From the IMG/VR virus record IMGVR_UViG_3300032268_000572, positions 1 to 61,944 of that record: DNA of 61,944 bases. One strand, 5' to 3'. A program made the translations under genes and the position numbers. How positions within the stretch are numbered: the first letter of the stretch is position 1; every line of letters starts with the position of its first letter. Source of the DNA: a virus. Taxonomy: Duplodnaviria; Caudoviricetes. The notes under the pieces were generated by a model. It was given only the letters and a program-made list of their open reading frames with translations. It was not told the DNA's origin and did not search any database. Below are positions 10,112 to 25,621 of this stretch, piece by piece.

Positions 10112-11014
10112 ATGTCAGACTTAGACCTCTCCTCCGCCTTTGGAGAAAAAGCCTTAATACCCGAAATCCAAATTGACACCCCCACCGACATACGTCCAGA
10201 CCTTTCCGCTTACGGTATTGAAGAAACCGATAAGGGCATCTGCGAAGATACGTTTGAAAATCGGCAAGCCCTTAGACGTGCCCGCCTCAACTGGATTCCT
10301 GTTTACGCGGTTAACGGAGTTCCAACGGGACTCATCCAAGCCCTTTCAAAAGAAATGCAGAGTCAGCAACGTTTACTTTCTCTAGCTGAAAAAGCTATAA
10401 TACTTGAAGACGCCCAAAACAAAAACTCAGATTACCTAACGGGCTTCGACCTCCTTGCTGAGGAAGCAGCGGACGCAATGGTTCCACCGTGGGTGTTGGG
10501 AGCTACCCGCGTTTGGATGAAGGAACAAAACGAAGGTCTGAAACTTGGACGTAAGCCTTCCCCCCTACCCCACCGCTGTAAGGCAATTAAGGACGACGGC
10601 ATCCGATGCCAGCTTTGGACTGGAGGACGTCCACAAGATGATGGCCTGTGTCGCGTTCATTTAGGTTCCCTCCGCAATAAGCCAACGGATAGCGTAGAAC
10701 GCGCTCGCGACCGTTTGACCCAAGCAGCTCCTGCAGCGGTTGACGTTCTAGAACAATTAATGGATTCTGCTGAGAGCGAACCTGTACGTCTGAAAGCATC
10801 AACGGAGATACTTGACCGCGCTGGAGTTAGAGCAGGGTTTGACATTAACTCAGATGTTACTATAGACATCCGACCTGCAGCCTCCGTTATTCAGGAGCGT
10901 CTCCAACGGCTAGCAACTAGTGTGCTAGAGTCAGCAGCAATACAAGAACAAACGGTAGACGCCGAAGTTGTCGAAGATGAAAAAGAAGTAGTTGACAAAA
11001 TTGAATCTGAGTGA
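10112..11014 (+). CDS. putative terminase small subunit-like protein
   Basis: C..C..CxxH (HGGxSTG-like) module followed by helical AVDVLEQLM..ESEPVRLKASTEILDRAG. Confidence 0.55.
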   Translation: MSDLDLSSAFGEKALIPEIQIDTPTDIRPDLSAYGIEETDKGICEDTFENRQALRRARLNWIPVYAVNGVPTGLIQALSKEMQSQQRLLSLAEKAIILEDAQNKNSDYLTGFDLLAEEAADAMVPPWVLGATRVWMKEQNEGLKLGRKPSPLPHRCKAIKDDGIRCQLWTGGRPQDDGLCRVHLGSLRNKPTDSVERARDRLTQAAPAAVDVLEQLMDSAESEPVRLKASTEILDRAGVRAGFDINSDVTIDIRPAASVIQERLQRLATSVLESAAIQEQTVDAEVVEDEKEVVDKIESE

Positions 11015-11189
11015 TATCATAGAACTAGCTAGAGAACATTCAGGACGTCTACACTCTGACATCATGCTGAGCTCTACCCGTATTGAGCATGTACGGGTAA
11101 CGGCCCGCGCCAATGAAGCAGTAAACTTGTTGCAAGCTCTAGAAAACCTAGCGGGAGAAAATGACAAAGGAAGCGAACCTCAGGGATAG
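10992..11189 (+). CDS. hypothetical protein
   Basis: 65-aa ORF overlapping both neighbours. Confidence 0.5.
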   Translation: MTKLNLSDIIELAREHSGRLHSDIMLSSTRIEHVRVTARANEAVNLLQALENLAGENDKGSEPQG

Positions 11190-11931
11190 CTTTATTGCGA
11201 GCGCCGAAAACTATTTAGGTTACACGGCCCGCGCTGACGGAACAAATCATTTCGGGGAGACCGTTGGCTATAACGGCAAGGGGTTACCGTGGGACGGTGC
11301 CTTCATTGACGTCTGCGCTAGAGAAGTCGGCTTGCCCCTACCAGCGTTTGTATATACCCCCCAAGCCTTAAGTAACTACATACGTAACGGACGTTTGTAT
11401 TTAACTCCTAAACGGGGAGATGTAGCATTCTTTGAAACGTCTACGGTAACGGACTTCGGTCCGCCTCACGTAGGTATAGTAACGGACGTCTCGAGGTTTG
11501 TAACGGATGGTGTTTTCTCTACTATAGAAGCTCAGGTAAGTCACGGCCTGCCTAGGGGGAGCTCATTAAATGACGGGGTTTATAAACGTTCACGGAGCAA
11601 GCTGGACACAATAGGGTTTGCGCGTCTTAACTTTAAAATAACGGCACGCCATAGCGGGGGGGAAAATACATCAACGGACGCCCTTCCAACGATTGTGCCT
11701 GCTCAAGTATTGCCCAACATGAAGCATCCCAATGTCCAGCATGTACAGCTAGCACTGTCTGTTGTAACGGATGTACGTCGACTTCCGCGAGGTCACTTCG
11801 ACGGTAAGACTCGTAGCGCTTACGCTAAGTTCCAACGGAGCATCGGATACGTTCCTGCAGACGGGGTACCAGATTTCAACAGCCTTCAACGGCTTGCCAA
11901 GGAAACGGGTTTATTTACTGTTGGTAGTTAG
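11161..11931 (+). CDS. CHAP-like domain (Cys replaced by Asp) plus PG-binding domain
   Basis: A..YLGY, PWDGAF, PKRGDVAFF, HVGIV, TIE; C-terminal VQLAL..GHFDGKT..FQ..DGVP. Confidence 0.75.
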   Translation: MTKEANLRDSFIASAENYLGYTARADGTNHFGETVGYNGKGLPWDGAFIDVCAREVGLPLPAFVYTPQALSNYIRNGRLYLTPKRGDVAFFETSTVTDFGPPHVGIVTDVSRFVTDGVFSTIEAQVSHGLPRGSSLNDGVYKRSRSKLDTIGFARLNFKITARHSGGENTSTDALPTIVPAQVLPNMKHPNVQHVQLALSVVTDVRRLPRGHFDGKTRSAYAKFQRSIGYVPADGVPDFNSLQRLAKETGLFTVGS

Positions 11932-12509
11932 TTGAGGTCCCATCTTTCCATTCCCTTTTTTAGCTTATCTGGATTTTCTTCAAAGAACCAGTGATCAGGT
12001 TCAACAAAGTGAAAGAACATCATTCCCACTTTTTGGACATCAGGGTTTGGATATGCTTCTCTCCAGTGTTCCTGTTCTTCTCCTAGAAATGCCAAACCTT
12101 CATTTGGATAAAGTCTGTATGCCTTGTCTTCTACATAAAGATCCCAAGGTTCAGTTTGGTATAGACACATGTCTAGGGTATATGTGCAAGCATTGCTGTC
12201 AGTATGCTTATGTAAGTTTGCTTTAGGTCCCTCATAGTGAGAGAACAAGGAGTAAGACATCAGCAATGTATCGCTCTTAAAAATATCTCTTGCTAGTGGG
12301 ACTAGTTTTTCTCCATGCTCTTCTACCATCTTGTCAGAATAGATATACCTTCCAAGATCTGGGTCAGCAAAAAAGAAGCTTCCAGACTCTTCGTCATCCC
12401 AGTCAGCCCCCTTTTCTAGATTAAACAAGTGCTCGTATAAAGCATCGTATTCATCCTTTGGAAAAAGGTTTTTAACTATCATTGGAATTCGTTCCATCGT
12501 CAGGCCCAA
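11928..12509 (-). CDS. 2OG-Fe(II) oxygenase superfamily protein
   Basis: LHKHTD (HxD), HWRE, FFHFV. Confidence 0.78.
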   Translation of the reverse strand: MGLTMERIPMIVKNLFPKDEYDALYEHLFNLEKGADWDDEESGSFFFADPDLGRYIYSDKMVEEHGEKLVPLARDIFKSDTLLMSYSLFSHYEGPKANLHKHTDSNACTYTLDMCLYQTEPWDLYVEDKAYRLYPNEGLAFLGEEQEHWREAYPNPDVQKVGMMFFHFVEPDHWFFEENPDKLKKGMERWDLN

Positions 12510-12712
12510 TCACTAATAGATACAATTTGTGTCTTAGTTCCTAGCTTACCGCTACTAAGGGGGGAGTGATAGATTTAGCACTTCTCAATAAGCTTATTTA
12601 GAAGTTGCCCCCAGGGCGGATAGATCTAGCACTTCTCAACAACGTTAAATTTAGATTTATAACGTTTTGGTAACGGCCCGCCCTTACACGGAAAAACACG
12701 AAGAATGTTGAT

Positions 12713-12741
12713 TTGACAATTGACGGCACGCGCTGTAGCAT
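12713..12741 (+). promoter_or_regulatory. SigA-type promoter
   Basis: TTGACA-N17-TAGCAT. Confidence 0.5.
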
Positions 12742-12772
12742 AGAACAAATTACTGGACGGACGGATAACGGC

Positions 12773-13024
12773 ATGGAAGAACTGGACTTAAACTTCGAGA
12801 CGTGGCTAGCCTACGGACACAGTAAAGGGTGGAACGGCCCGCCAGTATGTGAGACACACGACGGCCTGCCATTATCAGAGCTCGAGTCAACGGAGTTCGA
12901 AACGGGTGACCCATGCGTGCACATAGTCCGCTTGTACGATAGCCCAGAGCAGAAACGGGAAGTCGAAGAGAACCACTCGCCAAGTCAGTGGAGAGCTAGC
13001 AACAGGTGGGGTTTAGTAAAATAA
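12773..13024 (+). CDS. hypothetical protein
   Basis: PPVCETHDGLP..DPCVHIVRLY; start moved to MEELD because the longer ORF overlaps the promoter. Confidence 0.7.
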   Translation: MEELDLNFETWLAYGHSKGWNGPPVCETHDGLPLSELESTEFETGDPCVHIVRLYDSPEQKREVEENHSPSQWRASNRWGLVK

Positions 13025-13035
13025 CGCTGTAACGG

Positions 13036-13290
13036 ATGCCTTATGCTATAACCATGAAGCACATAGAAATCCACGTAATGCGCACCACTCACGACTCCGA
13101 GTTAGCTCAGCTAGCTGGTCTGATAGAGCTAGAAGACGATGAACACTGCGACTACTGCAGCGAACTTGTTGCGTTCAACGGTTCAGGGGGGTTCTTCCCT
13201 TGCGCGGTTGTTCTAGACGAAGATACGGTCTTCTTACTCTGCGTAGGTTGCCTAGTTCCAATTCTTGGAGAACCTTACACGGAAAACTAG
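13036..13290 (+). CDS. Zn-finger-like hypothetical protein
   Basis: CDYC ... CVGC. Confidence 0.6.
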   Translation: MPYAITMKHIEIHVMRTTHDSELAQLAGLIELEDDEHCDYCSELVAFNGSGGFFPCAVVLDEDTVFLLCVGCLVPILGEPYTEN

Positions 13291-13939
13291 GAAAAGTCTT
13301 TTGAGGATAAAACTTGAAGATTTAGAGATTGTTTACATAAATCTTCCAGAAGCTGTAAACCGAAACCAGTCAATGGTAAATATGCTTAGCCACTACGGAC
13401 TAAGATTTTCAAGAGTTGAAGCAATTCTTTCTGGCCCCCACCAAAAATACGACGTTATAGCAGACTCACACATAAAAGCTTTGGAGTCTTCTTCAGCTGA
13501 ACAATTGCTTATCTTAGAAGACGATTGTGTTCCTCATAATTATAGAAACGAAATTGAAGTTCCAGATGACGCTGACATTGTTTATCTAGGAATACACGGG
13601 TACGAGCACGTTAGGGAGAGAGTCTCCCCCGAGCTATGGAAAGTCTCTGGAATGCTTGCAGCTCACGCTATTTTGTATCTAACCCAGCGCGGTAAAGATA
13701 TTCTTATAGAAGCTCAAAAACTTACTAAAGATAAAAAATATCCTTTTGACATTAGCCTAGCTAAACTTCAAAATAAGGTAAACACTTACGCCTTGAACAG
13801 CCCAATTTGGTATCAAAAGGATTACCCAGAACTTACTAAGTTTGAATTAGATAACTCAGAGCATATGACTTTTGGCTTGTATGGCGGGGGCTATCGAGAC
13901 TACGACTCCCCCCTAAGGTTTGACACGCCCAGTTCTTGA
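13265..13939 (+). CDS. glycosyltransferase family 25-like
   Basis: YINL...R...M, RVEA, SHIKAL, LILEDD, DIVYLG, AHAILY; start uncertain. Confidence 0.8.
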   Translation: MENLTRKTRKSLLRIKLEDLEIVYINLPEAVNRNQSMVNMLSHYGLRFSRVEAILSGPHQKYDVIADSHIKALESSSAEQLLILEDDCVPHNYRNEIEVPDDADIVYLGIHGYEHVRERVSPELWKVSGMLAAHAILYLTQRGKDILIEAQKLTKDKKYPFDISLAKLQNKVNTYALNSPIWYQKDYPELTKFELDNSEHMTFGLYGGGYRDYDSPLRFDTPSS

Positions 13940-13989
13940 TTTGACTTTGTCACTCCAGTGCGTTATAATAGTAAAAACAAAAGGACGCT

Positions 13990-14118
13990 ATGAACAAAGA
14001 TTGCGATAACTGCGGGAACTCTAGGGAAAAGCAACAGCTATGGCCAGTAGGTAGATATTACTTTTGCACCGTTTGCTACTTAGCCCGCATGCGCGACACG
14101 CCCAAAACCAAGATTTGA
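13990..14118 (+). CDS. 42-aa Zn-ribbon protein (not in ORF track)
   Basis: own promoter, AAGGA RBS, CDNC...CTVC. Confidence 0.6.
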   Translation: MNKDCDNCGNSREKQQLWPVGRYYFCTVCYLARMRDTPKTKI

Positions 14119-14163
14119 CTTTGTCAGTAGGGTGTGGTATAATAGTAATAACGAAAGGGAGTT

Positions 14164-14613
14164 ATGAAAACTAAATCAAACAGCAAACACGCTGAGTATC
14201 AAGAATTATTTGACGCGCTGAAAAGCGTTTCACACGAAGCGCTCGCTGAGTGCCCAGCTCCAACCCCAATCATCGTTGGTTCGCCAAGCACACCACTTGG
14301 CACTGATGTTGACCCAAACCAGAAAACTTGGTTTGTCGAAGGTGGCGTTTCTGGTTTTGCCACTGTTGTTCTTGTGAGTGGTCGCACTGGGTTTGCTAAG
14401 TGGTTAGTGCAAGAGCGCCCAATGGGAGAAAAGCTGGGTTCCAAGTGGTGGTCGATTGGCAGAGCTAAGGGCGTTGGCATTTACACTTTCGAGCGATATG
14501 GTTTTGCTGACGCTGGCCAAAGTTATGAGCGCAATCGCTTTATCGCAAATCGTATGGCGCAATACTTGCGTGGCCAAGGATACGAGTGTTGGGTAGATGC
14601 AAGAATTGACTAA
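14164..14613 (+). CDS. hypothetical protein
   Basis: own promoter and GAAAGGGAG RBS. Confidence 0.75.
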   Translation: MKTKSNSKHAEYQELFDALKSVSHEALAECPAPTPIIVGSPSTPLGTDVDPNQKTWFVEGGVSGFATVVLVSGRTGFAKWLVQERPMGEKLGSKWWSIGRAKGVGIYTFERYGFADAGQSYERNRFIANRMAQYLRGQGYECWVDARID

Positions 14614-14800
14614 CGCTGGGTGGAAGTTCGGTGAACGCTACAACGAGTCTGGGGAATTCAATCCCCGGCTCATTGTTTGCGGAGACTGCGGAGACTATGG
14701 TGAACCAGAAACTATGACTTTTTGGAACTTGGACTCTCAAGAAGGCGCAGAGTATTGGTGTGCGACTTGCGCCAATAGATATAATTTGACTTTCAAATAG
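14597..14800 (+). CDS. small Zn-finger-like protein
   Basis: CGDC...CATC. Confidence 0.55.
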   Translation: MQELTNAGWKFGERYNESGEFNPRLIVCGDCGDYGEPETMTFWNLDSQEGAEYWCATCANRYNLTFK

Positions 14801-14841
14801 AACTATGCTATAATAGATACATACGAAAAGAAAGAGGGAAC

Positions 14842-15357
14842 ATGCACGTATTACAGTACATTGCAGTAAAAGCAGAAGATAGCGACGAAGCAATGCGTAG
14901 AGTAGAAGACACTCTCCAGAACTGGTTGGGTCGCGACGAAAGCCCAACTGGCACTTGGTATGACTGGTTCGTAGTTGGTGGTGGAAGATTTGTTGAGGGA
15001 AACCCTTACGCAAGTTCACCTAACCATATTGTTAGTTATGCGGAAGATGTTGAAAAGTTCAACGAGCTGATTGAAAAAGCAATTTCAAATCGTGTTGAAG
15101 AATTCAATAGCTATCGCAAGAGCTTAGTGGAAAAGGGTGTTGACCTAGAAACAAAGCTCGACAGCTACACTGGGGAAATGCAGTATGACTTTGAACTGTA
15201 TCCCTTGAAGAAGATGATTGATATGTTGCAAGGCGAGTGGGATTGCAATTCTTACTTCTTCGACTTGAACCACGACAGCACCAACACAGAACACCTTAGA
15301 AAAAGCCTTGAGACTGAGAACGATTGGTTCTTAGTTCCAGTGGACTTCCACTTCTAA
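14842..15357 (+). CDS. hypothetical protein (WYDWFVVGGGR ... VDFHF)
   Basis: own promoter and RBS. Confidence 0.75.
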   Translation: MHVLQYIAVKAEDSDEAMRRVEDTLQNWLGRDESPTGTWYDWFVVGGGRFVEGNPYASSPNHIVSYAEDVEKFNELIEKAISNRVEEFNSYRKSLVEKGVDLETKLDSYTGEMQYDFELYPLKKMIDMLQGEWDCNSYFFDLNHDSTNTEHLRKSLETENDWFLVPVDFHF

Positions 15358-15368
15358 GCTCTGGCGTG

Positions 15369-15388
15369 CGGGGGGCGCAAGTCCCCCG
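15369..15388 (+). terminator. GCAA-tetraloop hairpin
   Basis: cgggggg-c GCAA g-tcccccg just after a stop codon. Confidence 0.55.
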
Positions 15389-15463
15389 ACACGCTGGTCA
15401 AAATGGATTTGACAAATTGAAACAGAACTGGTAAAATAGATACATAACAATGAAAGAGGGAAA

Positions 15464-15943
15464 ATGGAAAAGAATAGAACTCCAGTAGGCAAGGCGCTCT
15501 ACATCGAGTTGCAAAAAGCAAACAGCGCATACCAAATTATCTTTGTGCCGGGTTACAAAGACCCAAGAGATGGCGAGCGCAAATTGCCAGTAGCTCTAAA
15601 AAGGCAAGTGTCAGAAATCTCACCACGCAAGCAATGGAAAATTGCAAAGACTTGGGGCCATGGCGCATCAGATTTACGCAAGACCATAGGTTCCTTGTCT
15701 AGGCAAGATGCAGTAGAAACTATGTTTTATAACTCTCTAAACTCTGTTATGAGTCAGCTATTCCACCAAGGTTGGAAAGTAAATAGCAGACCTTTAGCAG
15801 TAGAAGTTAGTGAAGAGGATGCTATGAAAGTTCACGATGGCAAAACTCCACCAGCTTTGATTCGCCGAATTGATAAGGCACGAATCGAACTTGGATATAG
15901 CAAGAACTATTACAACGAAACACCAGCAACAACAGTATTATAA
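15464..15943 (+). CDS. hypothetical protein
   Basis: own promoter and RBS. Confidence 0.75.
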   Translation: MEKNRTPVGKALYIELQKANSAYQIIFVPGYKDPRDGERKLPVALKRQVSEISPRKQWKIAKTWGHGASDLRKTIGSLSRQDAVETMFYNSLNSVMSQLFHQGWKVNSRPLAVEVSEEDAMKVHDGKTPPALIRRIDKARIELGYSKNYYNETPATTVL

Positions 15944-15972
15944 ATAACTCAACTAAATGAAAGAGGGATAAA

Positions 15973-16986
15973 ATGAGTTTAGAAAACATTCAGAAGCAGG
16001 TAAGGCTACATCCAGAATTGCCAAGAGCAATAGAAGCAGTCCTTAGTCAAGGATGGCATCAAGATGGCGCTGTTGGGACAACTGAATCAGAAATAGAAAA
16101 GTTCTATACGCCAGCAGGTAAGCTTGTTATGCGTTCTAGAGATGGAGAGGGTAAGCCTAGAAAAGTGGTAGTTGTAAATACAGAAGCACTTGCAGGCGAG
16201 ACTCACTATGTTCGACCTAATGGCGATAAGTATTACACACGCAAGTGGGGCGAACACGACGATGTTGAAGTTCTCAAAAAAGCTCGTGTAGCTAATCAGT
16301 ATGTTCTACTCTATGGCGCACCGGGAACTGGTAAGACTGCGATGGCAGAAGCTGCATTTGCAGAAGAGCTAAACACAGTCCTTGGTTCTGGCGACACCGA
16401 AGTTTCAGACTTGGTTGGTGGATATGTTCAGACTCCAAGTGGTGGATTCGATTGGATTGATGGGCCGCTGGTTCGTTCAGCAGAAGAGGGTAAGCCTTTA
16501 CTGATTGACGAAATTGGTTTGATTGACCCTAAAGTTCTTTCAATCGTTTATGGCTTGATGGATGGTAGGCGTGAGTATACTGTTACAGCTAACCCAGAGC
16601 GGGGAACTGTAAAAGCAAAACAAGGGTTCTATGTAATCGCAGCCACCAACCCAAACGCACCGGGAGTTCGCTTATCAGAAGCGTTGCTCTCTAGATTCGC
16701 AATTCACGTTGAAGTCTCGACTGACTGGGCGCTCGCTAAGAAGTTGGGCGTTCCAATTACAGCTGTGACTGCCGCGCAGAACTTGTCTAAGAAACAATCT
16801 AGTGGTGAAGTTTCTTGGGCGCCGCAGATGCGTGAGTTGCTAAACTTCAAAGCTTTGCAAGAAGATTTTGGAACCAAGTTTGCAGTTGATAACTTGCTTG
16901 CGAGCGCACCAGAAGAAGATAGACCAGTTGTGTCAGATGTATTCACAAGAGTCTATGGTGAAGAGTTTAGACCAGCTAAGATATAG
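15973..16986 (+). CDS. MoxR/CbbQ/NorQ/CobS-like AAA+ ATPase
   Basis: GAPGTGKT, WIDGPL, LLIDEI, AATNP, ALLSRF. Confidence 0.9.
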   Translation: MSLENIQKQVRLHPELPRAIEAVLSQGWHQDGAVGTTESEIEKFYTPAGKLVMRSRDGEGKPRKVVVVNTEALAGETHYVRPNGDKYYTRKWGEHDDVEVLKKARVANQYVLLYGAPGTGKTAMAEAAFAEELNTVLGSGDTEVSDLVGGYVQTPSGGFDWIDGPLVRSAEEGKPLLIDEIGLIDPKVLSIVYGLMDGRREYTVTANPERGTVKAKQGFYVIAATNPNAPGVRLSEALLSRFAIHVEVSTDWALAKKLGVPITAVTAAQNLSKKQSSGEVSWAPQMRELLNFKALQEDFGTKFAVDNLLASAPEEDRPVVSDVFTRVYGEEFRPAKI

Positions 16987-16992
16987 CAAAGC

Positions 16993-17086
16993 TTGGGACA
17001 GGATATTCCCCCCCTTTCTCCTGTCCCAAAGCGTGGCATAGTGGCCACGCCGGGGGGTGTCTTATACGCCTTGTTTAGACACCCCC
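16993..17086 (+). terminator. tandem hairpins after the AAA gene
   Basis: ttgggacagga/tcctgtcccaa and ggggggtgtct/agacacccccc stems. Confidence 0.65.
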
Positions 17087-17153
17087 CACCTAACAGACTT
17101 GACTTTTGTAATCAACTATGATAGAATAGTAATAAGAATAGAAAGGGCACAAA

Positions 17154-18971
17154 TTGCATTTTGGAAATAAAGAATTGAGAAAAGTAAGTTCGCCAGAATG
17201 GTTGCGAGCTGGTTCACAAATTGCAAACATAGCTAACCTGTGGGCAAATCGTGGAGACCTAATTGTTCTAGCTGGGCCACACGAGTCTGCACCTGCACCT
17301 GCACTATTCAATCCTGCTAGTGCCGAGATTGAAATCAATACTGATGTTGCTTTCGGAACTATGGTCAAGCCAGAAGAAGTTGGCGACCTAAGTATTCGCA
17401 AGAATCAGTATGAGTTTCCAAAAGCTACTGGCGCAATCTTCCACGAAGCACTACACGCCAGATACTCTCGTTGGAATCTAGAAGAAGCTTTCAAAGCTTT
17501 GAAGCCAGTTGAGTATAAGTTCTTAGTGATGCTAGAAGAGTCTCGCATCGAATCTATTGGAGTAAAAACAACTCCACAGAATCAAATCTTTTTACGCTCG
17601 TCAGCTTTAGAGTTGGCGCTCGCAGATATGAACTCTACTCTCGACAAGATAACAACAGCACAAGCCATTGGTTCTTCCTGTTGCTTAGTTCTAGCTCGTG
17701 TTGATGCAGGAGTTTTGGAAGCTGATGATGTTGAAAATGTTAGGGATGTTATTGTTGGTCAGATTGGTGAAGAGCTGTTAGAAGAGCTACGCCAAGTTTG
17801 GATTGAGTTCCAATCACACCTAGACCACAGCAACTCAACAAAGCTACAAGAGCTTGCTAAGAAGTTTGTTGAGCTATTGTCAAAGATTTCTGGTAACGAT
17901 GAGTCAGAAGAAGCTGGAGAGTCTGGCGAAGCTGGCGAAGCAGGGGAAGCTGGAAAATCTGGAGACTCTGGAGACTCTAAAGAGTCTGGAGTTATTGGAA
18001 AGCTTATCGAGTCTATGCAAGAAGCATCAGAGAGTAGCTCGATTGAAGTGAACGAAGAAGTTTCAGAACAGCAGACAGCAGAAGAGTGGAAAGAAATTGT
18101 TTCTACCAAAAGTCAAAAGTCTCAGCAGAAGAAAAAGAATGAAGCTGTTGCTAAAGAAGTATTCAAAGTCTCTGGAGAAGATATTGGTAGCACTGGTTCA
18201 CGCTCACAACTAATTAGCAAGCGAGCGCCCACAGCACAAGAGAGAGCTGCAGCTGTCAAGATTGGTCAGATGTTAGACAAGGCAAAGTATCGTGAGCGTT
18301 CCGAGACTGTTGTGAAAAGCATCACACCTCCGGGCAGACTTAGAACTAATGCTTTAGTTCAAGGCGCGGCTCTTCGAGCTAAGGGAGTTATGCAACAATC
18401 AGAAGCTTGGAAGCGTAAGGTTCGCAAGCACACAGACGACCCAACTCTAACTGTTGGTGTGTTGGTGGACATAAGTGGTTCTATGAGGTCAGCTATGGAA
18501 CCAATGGCTATTTCAGCTTGGGTAATGTCAGAAGCTACCAATAGAGTTCAAGGTAAGTCAGCTATGGTTTATTACGGCTCTGGAGTATTCCCGACCCTAA
18601 AGCCGGGACAGCGCTTGCGTGAAGTAAATATATATTCTGCGCCAGACAATACCGAAAACTTTGAAGATGCGTTTGCGGCGATTGATGGTTCGCTCAATCT
18701 TCTTTACGGAACTGGGGCAAGGCTATTGGTAATTGTTTCTGATGGTCAGTATAAGACTCGTCAGATAGAAGCAACCAAAAAAGCTATTGCCGACTGCAAG
18801 CGTAATGGCGTCGGGGTTCTTTGGTTGAACTTTAGTTCTCACGATTACTACATCAGAGACCTAGTTCAGAACAATGGAGAAATAGTTTCCGTTGATGCCG
18901 ACGACCCAACCAAAGCTACGCTGGCGATTGGTCAGTCAGCCACTAAAGCCTTGATGGCGGTTAGCGTATAA
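17154..18971 (+). CDS. CobT-like vWA protein with N-terminal HExxH metallopeptidase-like domain
   Basis: FHEALHA..LEESRIE; acidic linker; MIDAS VDISGSM, VIVSDG. Confidence 0.85.
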   Translation: MHFGNKELRKVSSPEWLRAGSQIANIANLWANRGDLIVLAGPHESAPAPALFNPASAEIEINTDVAFGTMVKPEEVGDLSIRKNQYEFPKATGAIFHEALHARYSRWNLEEAFKALKPVEYKFLVMLEESRIESIGVKTTPQNQIFLRSSALELALADMNSTLDKITTAQAIGSSCCLVLARVDAGVLEADDVENVRDVIVGQIGEELLEELRQVWIEFQSHLDHSNSTKLQELAKKFVELLSKISGNDESEEAGESGEAGEAGEAGKSGDSGDSKESGVIGKLIESMQEASESSSIEVNEEVSEQQTAEEWKEIVSTKSQKSQQKKKNEAVAKEVFKVSGEDIGSTGSRSQLISKRAPTAQERAAAVKIGQMLDKAKYRERSETVVKSITPPGRLRTNALVQGAALRAKGVMQQSEAWKRKVRKHTDDPTLTVGVLVDISGSMRSAMEPMAISAWVMSEATNRVQGKSAMVYYGSGVFPTLKPGQRLREVNIYSAPDNTENFEDAFAAIDGSLNLLYGTGARLLVIVSDGQYKTRQIEATKKAIADCKRNGVGVLWLNFSSHDYYIRDLVQNNGEIVSVDADDPTKATLAIGQSATKALMAVSV

Positions 18972-18974
18972 AAC

Positions 18975-19016
18975 TTCTGGCGGGGAGTCTTACTTCTATT
19001 CTTCTCCCCGTCAGAA
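18975..19016 (+). terminator. hairpin after the vWA gene
   Basis: ttctggcggggag / ctccccgtcagaa. Confidence 0.6.
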
Positions 19017-19095
19017 CCAAATCTTACGGCGTGCCGATTTGACAAATGTCTGGTGCGTATGGTATAATAGAACATAACGACGAAAGGACACAAAA

Positions 19096-19515
19096 ATGGG
19101 ACAGTATCACAAACTAGTAAACCTAGATAAAAAAGAGCAAGTAGTTTCTTACAATCTCGGCTTGGGTGCTAAGCAGTATGAGCAAACGGGTGTTGAAGGT
19201 TCTATGGGAGATGCTTTGTATCTTTTGCTTATGACATCTCCATCTCGCGGTGGCGGGGACTGGGATGAGTTCGATGACCTATCGGGTAGATGGGTTGGAG
19301 ACCGAGTAGTAGTTCTCGGAGACTATACGGGAGACGATGACTACGCCGAGTATCCCAACTTCGGCAAGCTGTTCCACGAGAGCGAGGAGTGGACTGATAT
19401 ATCGGATGATGTAGCGGTTGCCCTTGGCAAGGTGTGGGACTTCGAGATTGATGTGACGGAGAGCGGTTGGCGAACCCGTAAGCGCAAAAACGAAAACGAG
19501 AAGGAGACGGTGTAA
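19096..19515 (+). CDS. hypothetical protein (MGQYH..GRWVGDRVVVLGDY)
   Basis: own promoter and GAAAGGA RBS. Confidence 0.78.
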   Translation: MGQYHKLVNLDKKEQVVSYNLGLGAKQYEQTGVEGSMGDALYLLLMTSPSRGGGDWDEFDDLSGRWVGDRVVVLGDYTGDDDYAEYPNFGKLFHESEEWTDISDDVAVALGKVWDFEIDVTESGWRTRKRKNENEKETV

Positions 19516-19715
19516 TGGTAGACACAACGGGCAAGGTTCTGTGGGTAGCAGACGACGGAAGCTACGGATACGGCAAGCTGTTGACATTCGATACGGCAAG
19601 CTGGACTGACGAAGACTTTAGCAGACTAGATGAAGCATCGGATAGCGAAAGAGTAGATGTAGCAGTAGACATCGAGTATCAGAAGGAGACGGGTAATGTC
19701 GACTTGGGAAGTTAG
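19515..19715 (+). CDS. hypothetical acidic protein
   Basis: TAATG coupling, AAGGAG RBS. Confidence 0.7.
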   Translation: MVDTTGKVLWVADDGSYGYGKLLTFDTASWTDEDFSRLDEASDSERVDVAVDIEYQKETGNVDLGS

Positions 19716-19872
19716 GATATACGAAACGGTGTTCCATACAGCGTCAGTAGAAGCGAACAGTAGAGACGAAGCGTATGAAAAGGGTTATGAGATTATTACT
19801 AACGGCCCAAGTGACGGATACGATACAGAAGCAGAAGGATATACTGGCGACTGGGATGCTTGGGAAATCTAA
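19696..19872 (+). CDS. 58-aa protein with VEANSRDEA motif (DpnD/PcfM-like; not in ORF track)
   Basis: AAGGAG RBS; open frame MSTWEV...WEI. Confidence 0.65.
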   Translation: MSTWEVRIYETVFHTASVEANSRDEAYEKGYEIITNGPSDGYDTEAEGYTGDWDAWEI

Positions 19873-19876
19873 AAGC

Positions 19877-19970
19877 TTGTTCACACAAATAATGCGTCGC
19901 AAGACTCTAAAGTTGAAGTGAACAACAACCTAAGCAAGTTGTAAAAAGGCTTACTCAAACTTTGTAGAGC
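19877..19970 (+). ncRNA. candidate structured RNA containing pseudoknot copy 1
   Basis: ttgttcac/gtgaacaa stem; acaac/gttgt plus taagc/gctta pseudoknot. Confidence 0.5.
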
Positions 19971-20054
19971 TACACGGAAAACACGGAAAAAACTAGACTT
20001 GACAAATGTCAGTAGGTTATGGTAGAATAGAATAACAACAAAGAAAGGGAAAAA

Positions 20055-20303
20055 ATGTCAAGCAATTATCCTCCAGGCTCAATGATGGGGTCTGGTATTT
20101 ATTCAGTAGAAATTTCATATGACAGATTTGTTTGTGAAAATGAAGAGTGCGAAAAAGTAAACGAAGCAAACATTACCGCAACTGACGACTGGGGTAATTA
20201 CGAAATTGAGTGTGAGTTTTGCGGAGAAGTTTTTGCCAACAGCTCAACCTCCCAAGATGAGCAAGATTACAGAGAAACTAACTACGAAGATGAGGATAGA
20301 TAA
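20055..20303 (+). CDS. small Zn-ribbon-like acidic protein
   Basis: own promoter; C....C and CEFC. Confidence 0.7.
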   Translation: MSSNYPPGSMMGSGIYSVEISYDRFVCENEECEKVNEANITATDDWGNYEIECEFCGEVFANSSTSQDEQDYRETNYEDEDR

Positions 20304-20477
20304 ATGAGTAAAACATTATTGCCAACGCCGAAGGACTGGAAGATTTGTGTTTTTTGTGGACAAGTCTATGAAGATACCGAAACTATCGCTTGCTATGGTT
20401 GCCGAGAATATAAGGGCATTATGACCATAGAAGAGTGGGAAGAATATTCTGGCGAACAGTATGACGACAGAGCTTGA
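20304..20477 (+). CDS. 57-aa Zn-finger-like protein (not in ORF track)
   Basis: CVFC...CYGC; GAGGA RBS. Confidence 0.6.
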   Translation: MSKTLLPTPKDWKICVFCGQVYEDTETIACYGCREYKGIMTIEEWEEYSGEQYDDRA

Positions 20478-20540
20478 CTTTTACTAAAAACTATGGTATA
20501 ATAGAAAAGTAGTAAAACAACTAACAAAGAAAGGGAACAG

Positions 20541-21188
20541 ATGCCAAATTGGTGTGATTTAGATGTAGACATTATTGGGGACAAAGATACCCTAGAAAAA
20601 ATAGTGTCAAAGGGTTCTGAAGGAACTTTCAAGATTGGAAGCGACTGGAACTCTGAAATTATGAACTACGAAAAGTTTGAGGAAAAGGCTAATACTTTTT
20701 CTTTTGATAACTTTTTCCCAACACCAAACTTTATTGGTGTAGAAGAAGATAAGACTAAGCCTATTGAACAAAAAGTTGCGGAGTGGTCTAAAGGCTCTGA
20801 TGGAGTTTTTGATAACTGGTATGACTGGCGAGTTGGCAACTGGGGAACTAAGTGGGACTTAGGTCAAGATGAAGTTTCAATTACCGAGATTACAGATATT
20901 GGTAATGGAAAGTTTAGTTTCGGAATTGGTTCTTCTACTGCGTGGAGTCCAGCTTTAGAGTTCTTTAGAAAACTTTCTGAAGTCTATGATGTAAGAATTG
21001 TTTATCAGTATGCGGAAGAAGGTATGGCTTTCTTCGGAAAAGCTATCATAGAAGATGGAGAGATACTTTCCGATAGCTACCGAGAAATAACTAGCAACGA
21101 CTACAAAATTGCTGGGGCAACTCTTGACGAAGATGGACAAATAGATTGGGACAATACAGACGAATACGATTTGTATAAGGCTCTATAA
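20541..21188 (+). CDS. DUF1281/YubB ferredoxin-like domain protein
   Basis: MPNWC, WYDWR..NWGTKW, TAWSP, Y.EEG..F.G. Confidence 0.8.
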   Translation: MPNWCDLDVDIIGDKDTLEKIVSKGSEGTFKIGSDWNSEIMNYEKFEEKANTFSFDNFFPTPNFIGVEEDKTKPIEQKVAEWSKGSDGVFDNWYDWRVGNWGTKWDLGQDEVSITEITDIGNGKFSFGIGSSTAWSPALEFFRKLSEVYDVRIVYQYAEEGMAFFGKAIIEDGEILSDSYREITSNDYKIAGATLDEDGQIDWDNTDEYDLYKAL

Positions 21189-21269
21189 GGTGCGACACGC
21201 TTAGGGGATTGCGATTTGACTTTCCCCTAAGTGTGTGGTATAATAGTATTACAACAAGAAAGGAACACA

Positions 21270-21377
21270 ATGGAAGAATTCAATTCTCCAGAGCTAATCA
21301 ACGAAGATGCGATTGAAGCTCTAACGCCAGAACAGATTGAGGAAGCTCTAGCGATACTTACTAAAGCTGGCTACTAG
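21270..21377 (+). CDS. 35-aa acidic peptide (not in ORF track)
   Basis: own promoter, GAAAGGAA RBS. Confidence 0.65.
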   Translation: MEEFNSPELINEDAIEALTPEQIEEALAILTKAGY

Positions 21378-21383
21378 ACCAAG

Positions 21384-21424
21384 TTTCCTACACGCCTCTA
21401 TTGGTGAGGCATACAGGAATAACA
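21384..21424 (+). ncRNA. conserved hairpin, copy 1 (copy 2 at 24024-24064)
   Basis: ttcct..gcctc TATTGGT gaggc..aggaa; compensatory change in copy 2. Confidence 0.55.
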
Positions 21425-21427
21425 GGG

Positions 21428-21459
21428 AGAAGCCCCGCAGAAATGCGGGGTTTCTTTTT
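21428..21459 (+). terminator. intrinsic terminator
   Basis: gccccgca gaaa tgcggggt followed by T run. Confidence 0.8.
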
Positions 21460-21585
21460 GCAGAAAAATTTCACACGGAAAAAATAGAAAAGTCTTCCGC
21501 GAGCGCGACACGCTCTTACAACAGGATTTGATTTTTATCTTAGAGTGTGGTATAATAGAATAACAACAACAACGAAAGGACACAA

Positions 21586-21867
21586 ATGGGACACAAAACA
21601 TCATCAGAAATTGTTGAGAGCGAGCTAAGCTTGCGAGACCAACTAGCTTGGCACTTACAAGGTAATCACTATCCTCCAGTTCCGCTAGAGATGGTAGACC
21701 CTTGTATTGACTCTATCGAGTTAGCTTGTGTTGGGGACTGGAACGCTAAAGTATTGTTGCCTGAAGGCGTATCTTACAAGGGCGACAACTACGCTCCAGT
21801 TTGGGCAATGATTGAACAACATCACCTAAGCGAGTGGGTAGACGACGAAGGGGAAGGGGAATACTAA
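21586..21867 (+). CDS. hypothetical protein
   Basis: own promoter; HLQGNHYPP...QHHL. Confidence 0.75.
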   Translation: MGHKTSSEIVESELSLRDQLAWHLQGNHYPPVPLEMVDPCIDSIELACVGDWNAKVLLPEGVSYKGDNYAPVWAMIEQHHLSEWVDDEGEGEY

Positions 21868-22157
21868 TGGCTAAGACAATTACAGAAAACACAGACACAA
21901 TTAGCTTTGACTTGTTCGGAGAGTGTGGCGTAGAGATTAGTGAGTTTGTTTCCAACAAGGGCGAGAAAGTTTACGCCGTTTATTGGAACGACTATATGGT
22001 GAACGAGTGGACAGAATACTTTCCAACGCTAGCTATTGCGCTCGCGAGAGTTGCGGTTCTCGCGGAGTGTGTAGAAAATGAAAATGTCTACGCGTCTAGT
22101 TCTTTGGACTTTACTTTTAGTGCGTCAAGATTTATTGGCAAGCAAATACAGGCTTGA
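21867..22157 (+). CDS. hypothetical protein
   Basis: TAATG coupling; start at MAKTIT. Confidence 0.7.
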   Translation: MAKTITENTDTISFDLFGECGVEISEFVSNKGEKVYAVYWNDYMVNEWTEYFPTLAIALARVAVLAECVENENVYASSSLDFTFSASRFIGKQIQA

Positions 22158-22209
22158 CAAATAATCTAAAGTATGCTATAATAGAATTATAGAAAGGGAA
22201 GGTAGCGGT

Positions 22210-22389
22210 ATGGAAAACAAAATGTTTCTTTGTGAGATGACGGGTTGTTTTGATGACGGCACGCACGATATACAATTTACCAACGGCGAGGAATTTCAAG
22301 TTTGTGAAAGTTGCTTAGAGTTTTGGAAATTGGATACCGAATACAAAATAAAGTCTGTAAAAGAATTTGCTAACAGGAAGGCTAGCTAA
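22210..22389 (+). CDS. 59-aa Cys-rich protein (not in ORF track)
   Basis: own promoter; C....C...H...CESC. Confidence 0.6.
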   Translation: MENKMFLCEMTGCFDDGTHDIQFTNGEEFQVCESCLEFWKLDTEYKIKSVKEFANRKAS

Positions 22390-22751
22390 TGACATATGCG
22401 GTAGAGAAGCAAGTGAATACAACGGAACGGGTTATCGGTTATGTTGGAGTTGATGCGGGTATGTTGCTAATCACAGACCCTAGCTACGCCCGCAACTGGG
22501 TTGATAATGAAATGGGTGATGCGGGCGACGGACACTACTCTTGGGCGGGCGCTTGCTCAACGGCACGGGGTTTATTACAGGGCGGTTCGCTAAATTACGA
22601 CAAGGGACACGACGGACAAGGCGTGGTGTTTAGGACTGGCGTGGGCGACGGATACTATCCAGTAGTGGGACACTATGCCGAAGTAGACGGCTGGGGCGAG
22701 CGAATTGTAAAAATTGAAGTTATCTTTTTACAGGAGGAAACGGATGAGTAA
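22389..22751 (+). CDS. DUF4241-like protein
   Basis: GYVGVDAG...DP and TGVGDGYYPV. Confidence 0.7.
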   Translation: MTYAVEKQVNTTERVIGYVGVDAGMLLITDPSYARNWVDNEMGDAGDGHYSWAGACSTARGLLQGGSLNYDKGHDGQGVVFRTGVGDGYYPVVGHYAEVDGWGERIVKIEVIFLQEETDE

Positions 22752-22938
22752 ATACATAATTACAAATACAGAAAGATACGAAGTAGAAGCGGATAGCCTT
22801 GAACACGCCTTGACTCTTTACAAAATTGTTTTTGATGGTATTGAGCCAGAGATATTTGAATTACCAGACGGGGACTATGGGGACATAGACCAGTTTGAAT
22901 ATCTTGATGGAACAACGGAAGCTGTTGAGGTAGCCTAA
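22744..22938 (+). CDS. small acidic protein with VEADSLEHA motif
   Basis: GGAGG RBS; start at MSKYII. Confidence 0.65.
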   Translation: MSKYIITNTERYEVEADSLEHALTLYKIVFDGIEPEIFELPDGDYGDIDQFEYLDGTTEAVEVA

Positions 22939-23065
22939 AAAATTTCGGAGATTTGTTTTTTGCGGTGAAGGTTCACACGGAAAAAGTGGAAAAAAGCTTG
23001 CCGTGTTGGATTTGACAAATGTCGTAGGGTTATGGTATAATTGAATTACAACGAAAGGAAAACAA

Positions 23066-23239
23066 ATGACAGAGAAATTTTTCAATGTTAGTTTTATAAC
23101 AGACAGAGTAATAGTTAGCACAACAGTTGAAGCTGACGACGATACAGAAGCTCACGATAAAGCCCTAGAAGAAGTTAGAGGCTACTTGGGGCTAGACCTA
23201 ATCCCTGTTCGCTATCAAATAGAAGTTGAGCGTGTTTAG
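23066..23239 (+). CDS. 57-aa protein with VEADDDTEA motif (not in ORF track)
   Basis: own promoter, GAAAGGA RBS. Confidence 0.7.
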   Translation: MTEKFFNVSFITDRVIVSTTVEADDDTEAHDKALEEVRGYLGLDLIPVRYQIEVERV

Positions 23240-23316
23240 GACACGATTTGACAAATGTCAGTTGGTTATGGTATACTATAACTAGCAACAAAGAAGCAAC
23301 CAACGAAAGGAAAACT

Positions 23317-23535
23317 ATGAAATACCAAAACATAGACAAAGCACTAGAAGCCCTAAAAGCTCACAGACTAAGCTCAGAGCTAGATAAAGATGTTGTAGAA
23401 GCTACCGTTGAAGCCTACGCCTTCTTGAACAGCTTACTAACTAGCCAGCTTGGTGAAAAGCAATCCGAAAGAGTATTGAAAGCCGTTGAGAAATATGTTT
23501 CTGGGGTTAGCGTAGATAGCGACTTTATCTCCTAA
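23317..23535 (+). CDS. hypothetical protein
   Basis: own promoter, GAAAGGA RBS; start at MKYQNI. Confidence 0.7.
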   Translation: MKYQNIDKALEALKAHRLSSELDKDVVEATVEAYAFLNSLLTSQLGEKQSERVLKAVEKYVSGVSVDSDFIS

Positions 23536-23638
23536 GCCACGACACGCCTAGGATATTTGGATTTGACAAATGTCCTAGGTGTGTGGTATAATAGATACAT
23601 AGCAACAAAGCAACACCAACCCAACGAAAGGAAACCAA

Positions 23639-23935
23639 ATGACACAGACCCTAGTAGCAGTAGAGGTAGCAACACTAATCACCGAGCTAGCAGAAGTTCG
23701 TAGCCAAAAGGCAGACCTAACCAAGCGTGAAGGTCAGATTAGAAACGAAGTCTTGGCAACAACTGGCAAGGTTGCTACCGAGATTTTTGACCCAAGCACA
23801 GGTAAGGCTATCGCCGAGATAGTTCTTAGCGAGCGTAGGTCAATTACAGACTGGGAAACTTTCCAGCTAGCTTTTCCAGAGGCTTACCAAGCTCTCGTGA
23901 AGTTCACCGAGGTTGCGACACTCAACCTAAAGTAG
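23639..23935 (+). CDS. hypothetical protein with N-terminal coiled coil
   Basis: own promoter and RBS. Confidence 0.75.
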   Translation: MTQTLVAVEVATLITELAEVRSQKADLTKREGQIRNEVLATTGKVATEIFDPSTGKAIAEIVLSERRSITDWETFQLAFPEAYQALVKFTEVATLNLK

Positions 23936-23957
23936 TTTAGTAAAACTTGGCAAAAAC

Positions 23958-24090
23958 CAAAAATTGGATTTATCCAAAAATTTGGTAGCCTCACCTGAGC
24001 AAGTGGCTAAAAGGCTCACAGATTTTCCTAAACACCTCTATTGGTGAGGTATACAGGAATAACAACCTGAGCAAGTTGAAAAAAGGCTCA
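23958..24090 (+). ncRNA. composite structured RNA candidate: hairpin, pseudoknot, conserved hairpin, pseudoknot
   Basis: pseudoknots at 23992-24018 and 24063-24090 flank the duplicated hairpin at 24024-24064. Confidence 0.55.
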
Positions 24091-24198
24091 CCCCCGCCAC
24101 ACGGAAGTTTGAGAAAAATCTCCGCAACACGATTTGATTTTTACGAAGAAGTATGTTATAATAAATAAGCAACACAAATGATGAAAGGAAAAAGTAAA

Positions 24199-24453
24199 AT
24201 GGCAACAATTCAGAAAAATCTTCAGTATCACTTTGTCGTAGTTTGGAACGAAGCATCTGGGACTTGGGAAGTTGATGCGGAAACCCTTGATGCTAAGTTT
24301 GACACCGAAGTTATTTGGGACAAGGACAGCAACAACTGGGTCAGCTACGAAGATGATGAGGAGTTGCGAAACGACTTTACAAATAAAGAAGATGCGCTCG
24401 CAACTATTCTTCAGCAGTTCAATTCTAATTTTAGAGAGGGCGTGTTGGAATAA
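24199..24453 (+). CDS. hypothetical acidic protein
   Basis: own promoter; start at MATIQ after GAAAGGA. Confidence 0.7.
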   Translation: MATIQKNLQYHFVVVWNEASGTWEVDAETLDAKFDTEVIWDKDSNNWVSYEDDEELRNDFTNKEDALATILQQFNSNFREGVLE

Positions 24454-24855
24454 ATGAAAAGAGTGAGCATTACACAAGACCAGATTTTAGATGCGTCTTT
24501 TTATGTCAATAGTCCTAGTGCCGAAACTGTTTGGGAAGAAGAAGGCAATAGGTTCTTTGTTGTGCGTAATGGCGAGATGCGTATTCACGCTAAGAAGGAA
24601 GTTGGAGATGAGCATACCGAAGTTATTCGCTACACCGACCAGCTAAGAGATTTTGGTATCTACTTGGATAGTCAGCTTGCGGAGTGGACAGACAAGGGCG
24701 AAGAAGTATTTTGCTGGGTAAACAATTCTTGGTTTGAGGTTTGGGATACTAAGGACACCGACTATTTCTCAGAGCCTTTGTTTGACTTGAACGAAGCGAT
24801 AGAGTATGCTAAAGAACTATTAGAAGCATACGGAAACAATAAGGAAGTTGGCTAA
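24454..24855 (+). CDS. hypothetical acidic protein
   Basis: coupled ORF. Confidence 0.7.
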   Translation: MKRVSITQDQILDASFYVNSPSAETVWEEEGNRFFVVRNGEMRIHAKKEVGDEHTEVIRYTDQLRDFGIYLDSQLAEWTDKGEEVFCWVNNSWFEVWDTKDTDYFSEPLFDLNEAIEYAKELLEAYGNNKEVG

Positions 24856-25139: not shown

Positions 25140-25200
25140 TTCCTTTCTCTACGCAACAACCCCGCTAAGATAATTCCTTTCTCTTGGCGGGGATTTCTTT
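25128..25200 (+). terminator. tandem hairpins with identical TAATTCCTTTC loops; second followed by T run
   Basis: ttgcgtaga/tctacgcaa and ccccgctaaga/tcttggcgggg stems. Confidence 0.7.
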
Positions 25201-25573: not shown

Positions 25574-25589
25574 ACACAAGCCAAACACA

Positions 25590-25621
25590 AAGCCCTGCCG
25601 AAAAAGCGGGGTTTTGTTTTT
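25590..25621 (+). terminator. intrinsic terminator
   Basis: agccctgc/gcggggtt stem followed by T run. Confidence 0.65.

Follow-up and report, generated by a model that had tools for sequence, protein, structure and literature searches.

This report concerns four tracts in which the short word RACGG is written, in one orientation, over the coding sequence of a virus genome, IMG/VR record IMGVR_UViG_3300032268_000572 (61,944 nt; "the window" denotes this whole stretch, which is the complete record, with a CheckV completeness of 36%). The genome belongs to a large tailed phage, whose hosts are given as freshwater actinobacteria. The tracts are probably a polar signal at the level of DNA that is tied to the start of the phage's terminal repeat: their excess overrides the choice of synonymous codons, arrays of other words lie at the physical ends of cultured relatives, and in two of these the word keeps to one genome strand through a gene read from the other.

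The four tracts, whose bounds were set after inspection of the data (10112-11931, 12660-13290, 19096-19872 and 22210-22990; 4,009 nt), hold 76 copies of ACGG and 7 of its reverse complement CCGT; 8.9 ACGG are expected from the rest of the window, and the strand split has a binomial P of 9e-16. The rest of the window shows no strand bias (128 ACGG versus 113 CCGT, P 0.37). An initial annotation of the window had counted both forms by hand, and its counts proved exact in all four intervals: ACGG/CCGT amount to 21/2 in 11161-11931, 13/0 in 12670-13040, 13/1 in 19185-19820 and 14/0 in 22240-22920, with 83/11 over 10300-22984 and 204/120 over the whole window. The Poisson P of 21 ACGG in 771 nt is 5.5e-13, and the maximum per 771-nt window among 200 dinucleotide-preserving shuffles of the window is 10. 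The full word is RACGG, A or G preceding ACGG in 60/76 tract words (AACGG 38 versus 2.1 expected, GACGG 22 versus 2.6). Tract words are thus 5 nt long and degenerate; they are mostly intragenic, all are on the sense strand of plus-strand genes in the window, and their median spacing is 34-40 bp in every lineage. Three further words trail tract 2, up to position 13596, and tracts 3 and 4 each coincide with one promoter-to-terminator unit. The minus-strand gene that leaves a hole in the array behind tract 1 is probably a later insertion (coordinates are collected in Table 1).

An amino-acid-preserving shuffle had been named beforehand as the test that could refute the pattern, and under it the enrichment persists. 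In the 10 open reading frames (ORFs) of the tracts, 70 ACGG are observed, compared with 46.4±3.4 when synonymous codons are permuted within each gene (maximum 57 of 2000 permutations) and with 23.4±3.3 when codons are drawn from window-wide usage (maximum 35). The within-gene permutation is conservative because codon usage that was shaped by the word itself is retained; taken individually, only 4/10 ORFs reach p<0.05. The lysin-like gene at 11161-11931 has 21 ACGG versus 12.7±1.9 by synonymous permutation (maximum 19 of 2000), and among all 256 4-mers in the tract genes ACGG is the most enriched over this expectation (z 6.9). The A of the word occupies codon positions 1, 2 and 3 in 32, 28 and 10 cases. 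Threonine is encoded by ACG in 32/46 codons before G and in 6/35 otherwise; arginine is encoded by CGG in 10/24 codons after A and in 1/44 after another base; and Tyr, His, Asn and Asp codons that precede GG have C as their third base in 28 cases and T in 2. Other genes prefer different threonine codons, as the initial annotation had surmised (ACT 472, ACA 247, ACC 221, ACG 49), and its idea of a second, non-protein layer over coding sequence is supported as well: the word is strand-specific and runs through genes that are unrelated to one another, through every frame and through part of the intergenic DNA. An apparent depletion of ACGG in the other genes (117 versus 164.8, z -6.7) was set aside as not special, many CG-containing 4-mers being equally depleted.

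The capsid protein groups the window with cultured Microbacterium phages of 186-195 kb (Zooman, Pumpernickel, Big4, A3Wally and Cece) and with the cultured Arthrobacter phages Atuin, Mimi, Racecar and Talia1610. In cultured relatives the gene at 10112-11014 corresponds to gene 1 and the lysin-like gene to gene 4-7, both at the far left of the linear genome, and this region is present twice per record; in 10/11 phage records with a homologue of the gene at 10112-11014, it is gene 1, located 75-197 nt from the left end, and occurs at two places. Arrays in the long direct terminal repeat begin 120-190 nt inward of its physical left end, extend over 2.5-5.5 kb and comprise 37-95 copies, and the word differs by lineage. 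Zooman has an exact direct terminal repeat of 17,079 nt, the first 2.7 kb of which is not ACGG-rich; here AACCG occurs 37 times versus 2.1 expected, with 2 reverse complements, and AACCGT 22 times versus 0.8. Counted per 500 nt from nt 1, AACCG numbers 1, 4, 10, 10, 11 and 1, then about zero, and the other strand has none until the last of these six bins, which has 2. The same word is in excess in Pumpernickel (16 versus 1.8), A3Wally (29 versus 2.3) and Cece (18 versus 2.9); it is common to all four Microbacterium phages, so a same-host comparison of word choice gave no discrimination. Atuin and Mimi use a third word, TGCSG, which is strongly one-stranded over nt 1-5600; the counts per 500 nt in Atuin are 5, 3, 4, 7, 3, 11, 10, 15, 18, 7, 8 and 3 on one strand and 1, 0, 0, 0, 1, 0, 3, 1, 2, 3, 4 and 1 on the other. 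Here, too, the excess survives synonymous permutation (Zooman lysin gene 16 versus 7.7±1.3; Atuin gene 6 18 versus 8.2±1.8).

By synteny with these genomes, the physical end of the window's phage would lie just upstream of 10112. The tract region of the window has no megablast match in the cultured phages, and assembled contigs (X1-X4) aligned to 8500-28499 revealed no molecule ends. A two-fold step in depth between a 1.9-kb contig and its neighbour was considered as a repeat boundary and rejected, since it coincides with a polymorphic 197-nt deletion. A further capsid relative, with 72% identity, is the Actinomycetia phage DSL-LC01, described in the available part of its source as a metagenome-assembled genome with no known ends (PMC10611076); it has a weak excess of TGACGG only (10 versus 0.9). 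Sixama, a distant capsid relative, has neither an array nor a homologue of the first gene.

The signal is on the DNA and not on the mRNA, a conclusion that rests on the relatives, as all tract genes of the window are on the plus strand. In Atuin and Mimi the array crosses a gene on the opposite strand, and the word stays on the genome's plus strand: in this minus-strand gene the antisense word occurs 22 times versus 8.0±2.3 in Atuin (maximum 17 of 2000 permutations) and 33 times versus 14.3±2.7 in Mimi (maximum 25 of 2000), and its sense form is not enriched. The gene is real, as judged by two copies that are 61% identical and a Pfam DndB match (E 1e-13). In addition, about 15 TGCSG copies lie within a 576-nt non-coding gap. 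The antisense enrichment and the copies in the gap together indicate that the polarity is that of the genome and not of its transcripts. Minus-strand ORFs in the ACGG tract of the IMG/VR relatives L013, L011, L012 and L024 were discarded as uninformative on orientation because short ORFs are present on both strands there and no family is matched. As a separate observation, the DndB/ParB-like protein (PF14072) inside the terminal array of the Arthrobacter phages (L109 1600-3102, minus strand; L110 1921-3573, minus strand) hints at a DNA-modification system in these phages; the window has a Mom-like gene instead.

ACGG itself is retained in IMG/VR relatives. Among 16 such loci with a homologue of the lysin-like gene (34-84% identity), ACGG exceeds CCGT in 16/16 homologues and reaches at least 12 copies in 10/16; the six closest have 15-23 ACGG versus 0-2 CCGT. 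In 7/13 loci examined, ACGG is the top-ranked 4-mer of the region from the first gene to the lysin gene, and non-homologous genes at the equivalent place are also ACGG-rich (L009 4069-5342; L010 10997-11668). In L010-L014 and L024, a second tract recurs about 8-10 kb further on, after the MoxR/VWA gene pair; its start, in the relatives, is inside the VWA gene and does not coincide with a transcript boundary. When 7 lysin genes are aligned by codon, the words fall at 50 distinct positions, 22 of which are used by a single gene; genes with 52-57% amino-acid identity have only 5-9 of the window's 21 positions in common with it, yet each retains 13-22 words. Array density is conserved, word position is not. 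Conservation at synonymous sites of homologues, which the initial annotation had proposed as a check, takes a particular form: density is kept by selection in the relatives, and positions turn over.

A candidate for the reader is encoded by the gene that heads the array. The product of 10112-11014 (gp1, for gene product 1) has 41% identity to that of Zooman gene 1 and 29% to that of Atuin gene 1 (E 1e-12), and a homologue heads the array in all three lineages. It consists of an invariant Cys/His-rich segment (RC...RC...CRVH) followed by a helical part; in a profile of 9 homologues, the helical part matches the small terminase of PDB entry 7joq over about 55 residues (E 0.0014). PHROG 2538, "terminase small subunit", is matched weakly by 5/9 members (best E 0.0026), no Pfam small-terminase family is matched, and Cece gene 1 is annotated as terminase small subunit in its GenBank record. 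Sequence comparison thus suggests a small-terminase-like protein, and no more than that.

We tentatively favour the view that the phage terminase, through gp1, uses the array as an extended and oriented landing zone. A degenerate five-letter word would recur on one genome strand, roughly every 35-40 bp, throughout the first kilobases of what is, in cultured relatives, the long direct terminal repeat, and would be overlaid on whatever genes occupy that stretch. The phage's own DNA-handling machinery would read it, preferably the terminase via the first-gene protein, and the array, next to the cut from which the left genome end arises, may set the place and direction in which packaging or maturation starts. 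Both the phage-encoded nature of the reader and its identity with the terminase are what we infer. The initial annotation, which had thought of translocase guidance or nucleation of a DNA-binding protein, had the right kind of idea, apart from the link from weak to strong sites that is discussed below.

Several observations weigh against the landing zone. (i) The small-terminase assignment is weak, given the short 7joq match and a poor AlphaFold2 model (mean pLDDT, the predicted local distance difference test score, 54), and a second DNA-binding candidate, at 31698-32273, adjoins the large terminase gene. (ii) The densest part of the array is 1-4.5 kb from the end, away from the cut, and tracts 3 and 4, which follow some 9 and 12 kb later, are surplus to a single landing zone. 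(iii) A pac site is expected to be compact with few repeats; we know of no pac or cos recognition region that is 2.5-5.5 kb long or has 37-95 copies, as the arrays do. (iv) No array has helical or other periodicity (Rayleigh power at most 6). (v) In higher-GC relatives the excess is weak or absent, permutations reaching the observed count in 324/1000 cases for L017 and 121/1000 for L022; the corresponding figures are 52/1000 for L024 and 0-35/1000 for the other four genes. (vi) The word tracks phage lineage and host genus together, which leaves room for a host reader, and the host test described next covers the Arthrobacter word TGCSG only, one of three words.

The alternative with the best precedent, although an unlikely one, is a Chi-like shield: a host helicase-nuclease of the RecBCD, AddAB or AdnAB type, entering at the genome end, would be switched by the array from degrading DNA to recombining it, whereby unique DNA is protected, terminal repeats are joined and the uptake of CRISPR spacers is limited. 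The words are short and asymmetric, clustered at a terminus and conserved in density instead of position, they change with the host genus, and activity in one orientation would agree with the strand splits (76 versus 7 in the window; AACCG 37 versus 2; TGCSG one-stranded over nt 1-5600). Terminally clustered Chi sites are on record for the phages LLS and MD8, at least in the available part of the source (PMC12315714). A host word would be expected to be polar in the host, and 20 pieces of 20 kb (400 kb) of a complete Arthrobacter chromosome, oriented by dnaA and from one species that is not the isolation host, were therefore compared. Their leading strand has the expected G excess; TGCGG and TGCCG are on it in 50.3% and 48.9% of cases (ranks 375 and 236 of 431), hence not polar, and are not over-represented (observed/Markov expectation 1.10 and 1.05), while CCGGGGGA (89% leading strand, 40 versus 5) and CGCTGGTG (78%, 46 versus 13) are strongly polar. 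At about 6 copies per kb per strand in the host sample, TGCSG would hardly distinguish self from phage. No opposite-orientation array guards the other end of the Zooman repeat, and to our knowledge no Chi has been identified for actinobacterial AdnAB. The host result, for this one species and this one word, speaks against a host Chi-type reading. Independently of the arrays, CGGGGGA is also replication-polar in the Arthrobacter sample (L117-L136; 81 versus 22), CGCTGGTG resembles the enterobacterial Chi core, and CCGGGGGA, CGGGGGA and CGCTGGTG are candidate host words of the Chi type or of the type of the FtsK-orienting polar sequences (KOPS).

It is doubtful that the words are start sites of a primase, with plus-sense primers made at the words and running rightwards into the terminal repeat, for instance to start its copying. 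Read on the minus strand, they are 5'-CCGTY in the window, 5'-ACGGTT in the Microbacterium phages and 5'-CSGCA in the Arthrobacter phages, that is, a cryptic base plus a GT or GC core; the primase sites of T7, T4 and SP6 are GTC, GTT and GCA. The polarity fixed to the genome, the irregular spacing and the lineage-specific word would all be accommodated, and the metagenome-assembled relative DSL-LC01 encodes a primase/helicase. The grammar is so permissive, however, that nearly any short word fits, no known phage gathers primase sites in a terminal array, and the window has no primase gene, hence nothing with which the word could be correlated.

An entry track, although improbable, would draw on the position of the arrays: they would be a leader that enters before the first early promoters, read by an ejected phage protein or a host translocase or ratchet that pulls the DNA in. 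In cultured relatives the arrays reach from the physical end to about the start of the early promoter cassettes; the Zooman tract ends near 2.7 kb, shortly before the phage's first cassette (2.9-3.5 kb). The window has its first strong promoters at 13941 and 14115, within an early-type domain at 13.3-33.8 kb that has 24 promoter-like sites (at least 10/12 matches) on the plus strand versus 1 on the minus strand, and proteins of 3458, 1539 and 1102 amino acids, putative virion proteins, are encoded in the head and tail gene block. Against such a track, Atuin has promoter-like -10 elements inside its tract, at 4618 and 5553, and a sequence-reading ejection motor is without precedent. The early-type domain also has a composition of its own: TTAA is absent from 13001 to 33000, ACGT, GTAC and CATG occur 0-1 times per kb, and both flanks have normal palindrome counts (TTAA 5-8 per kb). 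This scarcity looks like restriction avoidance limited to the DNA that is read by host RNA polymerase; in T5, restriction sites are avoided in the DNA that enters first.

That the tracts have no function, being compositional relics of imported genes or products of local mutation bias, is largely refuted and very improbable. The G+C content of the tract genes, 0.49-0.52, is above that of their neighbours, and the genome is compositionally mosaic. Neither process, however, accounts for an excess that depends on context at synonymous sites in all three frames, that persists at 52-57% amino-acid identity with turnover of positions and that follows the genome strand through an opposite-strand gene. 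GATC and CCGG are each absent from the tract genes and avoided in the rest of the genome, and this shared avoidance indicates that the tract genes are not fresh imports; tracts 3 and 4 moreover obey the local ban on ACGT and TTAA.

A code at the level of mRNA, in which an RNA-binding protein or endoribonuclease reads ACGG in transcripts, can be given equally little credence: the sense orientation of all window words and the promoter-to-terminator extent of tracts 3 and 4 would suit it, but in Atuin and Mimi the word runs antisense to a real gene and is also dense where nothing is encoded, in the 576-nt gap, and the relatives' second tract starts inside the VWA gene without a transcript boundary. 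The RNA-protein loading that the initial annotation had entertained is disfavoured on the same grounds.

Hardly credible is the model in which weak ACGG sites feed a strong site, ACACGGAAAA, since 7/12 of these sites have no tract beside them, the element sits between terminator and promoter like a promoter-upstream element, and the corresponding elements of Zooman and Atuin lack the tract word. The model had its appeal: ACACGGAAAA is indeed found at all five places that the initial annotation had named (12686, 13277, 19972, 19981 and 22975), and 4 or 5 of the 12 strong sites are at tract ends. It occurs in the window 11 times forward and once in reverse; with its letter order reversed, the counts are 0 and 1. 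ACACGGAAAA belongs to a promoter cassette and is distinct from the arrays. The cassette consists, in this order, of a terminator hairpin, yaCACGGAAAA-N4-GAAAA, 18-61 nt and a sigma-70-like promoter; a strong promoter of this type follows at that distance in 8/12 copies, a count that includes the CACGGAAG variant at 24100 and takes the overlapping pair 19972/19981 as one. Zooman and Atuin have cassettes of like build, with CTTTAGTG-N-ACTCTTGCGTG and ACTAACAAAAACTTCGGTAG as upstream elements, and neither contains the tract word of its own phage; the ACGG that is common to ACACGGAAAA and the tracts is therefore most simply a coincidence. Together with its N4-GAAAA extension, ACACGGAAAA fits operator or "stoperator"-type sites of actinophages (well conserved, asymmetric, at least 13 nt, in short intergenic gaps), which the tract words, short, degenerate and mostly in genes, do not.

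Table 1. Features of the window
Feature	Position	Strand	Remarks
Mom-like modification protein	8536-9174		just upstream of the array
Holin	9746-9958		
Gene heading the array	10112..11014	+	300-aa Zn-ribbon protein; ACGG 9, CCGT 3
Tract 1	10212..11908	+	34 ACGG, densest in 11161-11931 (27 per kb)
Lysin-like gene, CHAP and peptidoglycan-binding	11161..11931	+	ACGG 21, CCGT 2; weak Pfam CHAP/PG_binding_1; PHROG endolysin families
Minus-strand gene in tract region	11928..12509	-	0 ACGG, 0 CCGT; 768-nt hole in the array
Tract 2	12673..13282	+	16 ACGG, 0 CCGT; intergenic stretch, promoter, two small ORFs
Early-type domain	13300..33750	+	follows tracts 1-2, contains tracts 3-4
Tract 3	19186..19817	+	13 ACGG; three small ORFs, located behind the MoxR/VWA gene pair
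Tract 4	22240..22980	+	15 ACGG, 0 CCGT; last word is part of the cassette element at 22975
ACACGGAAAA, 11 copies	12686, 13277, 19972, 19981, 21473, 22975, 25860, 26871, 27726, 28857, 30711	+	
ACACGGAAAA, one copy	25219	-	
Variant CACGGAAG	24100		
Large terminase	32303-33721		
Portal	35732-37513		
Very large ORF, 1102 aa	38047-41355		Alt-type ADP-ribosyltransferase domain
Very large ORF, 3458 aa	41666-52042		NUDIX domain
Very large ORF, 1539 aa	52663-57282		portal/protease-like region
Major capsid protein	57421-59523		

Besides the features in Table 1, the window encodes a major tail protein and several cell-wall hydrolases. Across its genes GATC is avoided (6 versus 135 expected by synonymous permutation), as is CCGG (15 versus 66). 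A sub-module at 13940-18971, with the genes for a MoxR-type AAA ATPase and a VWA protein, has its own word usage (CCGG 7 versus 0.9 expected, GCGC 25 versus 8.6, TTAA 0 versus 19.4). The large terminase gene is followed by a 640-nt AT-rich non-coding stretch (33721-34361), rich in CTAG- and TTAG-like words, which lies at the right edge of the palindrome-free domain and may be an origin or a repeat boundary. In a relative of about 98% identity, contigs of two runs connect 20061 with 24205 and lead from 23935 back to 20020, which amounts to a rearrangement between copies of the repeated promoter cassette. In the IMG/VR relative L016, the tract region at 8500-12000 holds 26 GATC versus 2.1 expected from the rest of the locus and 25 GGCC versus 1.2, both words being avoided by the rest of that locus. 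Zooman (L106) has, at 16540-16600 and about 500 nt inside the right boundary of its terminal repeat, a short tandem G-run array with a 13-nt period and GGGGGG-TCTAGA-like units; Pumpernickel (L108) has a similar one at 19429-19480.

Little is understood of how phages with long terminal repeats select and generate their ends, and the word layer would offer a direct handle on this question. The arrays can be recoded or inverted in the cultured Microbacterium and Arthrobacter phages with proteins unchanged, and the pattern could help to predict physical genome ends in metagenome-assembled phages. They are also a clean example of a non-protein constraint on coding sequence, in which a selectable layer of DNA words overrides synonymous codon choice across several kilobases. 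A literature search that covered mostly titles and abstracts, without supplements, found no description of such arrays, and a search by phage names found no paper; the available part of a survey of Microbacterium phages mentions only longer intergenic motifs, in other clusters (PMC7302621).

Each of several known systems shares some properties with the arrays. Single-orientation Type III restriction sites of T7 likewise entail a strand bias of a short asymmetric word; there, one orientation is avoided, whereas here one orientation is enriched 8-18 fold. Dunn and Studier, in 1983, reportedly described short repeat arrays that flank the terminal repeat of T7; these would resemble the present arrays in that a short word is directly repeated just within the border of a terminal repeat, ahead of the early promoters, and has an unsettled function, and would differ in that they are non-coding and made of about a dozen regularly spaced 7-mers, while the phage arrays here are irregular and run over coding sequence. 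KOPS and the SpoIIIE recognition sequences (SRS), the polar words of FtsK and SpoIIIE, also depend on density and orientation and not on exact position; they are, however, host 8-mers skewed over whole replichores, and TGCSG is not skewed in the host genome tested. Known pac regions are tens to a few hundred bp long and have only a few copies of their word; the present arrays have 37-95 copies over 2.5-5.5 kb, and the window has secondary tracts 9-12 kb away. The likeness to pac lies in short repeated words in or next to a small-terminase gene beside the packaging cut: the available part of the source places the P22 pac site inside the small-terminase gene and describes P1 pac as containing seven hexanucleotide repeats (PMC11260489). 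The small-terminase-like gene lies next to a physical end in the cultured relatives, and in the window by synteny only. A word distribution of a related kind is that of Chi in lambdoid phages, 20/23 sites being in the active orientation and clustered at one end in LLS, and 32 Pseudomonas Chi-type sites in one orientation with none in the other in MD8 (PMC12315714, available part). As in the arrays, a short asymmetric word far above chance runs, nearly always in one orientation, through genes toward one genome end; there, however, it is the host's known 8-mer at about one per 1.9 kb, and here a 5-mer at about one per 40 bp, in discrete tracts, that varies between phage lineages and, in the case of TGCSG, lacks polarity in a chromosome of the host genus. 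Possibly the arrays are a class of phage signal that has not been described before: kilobase-long, irregular, single-orientation arrays of a degenerate five-letter word, written over coding sequence where a long terminal repeat begins. The word and its reader, encoded by the phage as the small-terminase-like gp1 or another phage translocase, would evolve together, and the array would be an oriented track that determines the site and the direction of cutting, packaging or uptake of the genome, a counterpart of Chi or KOPS that is private to the phage.

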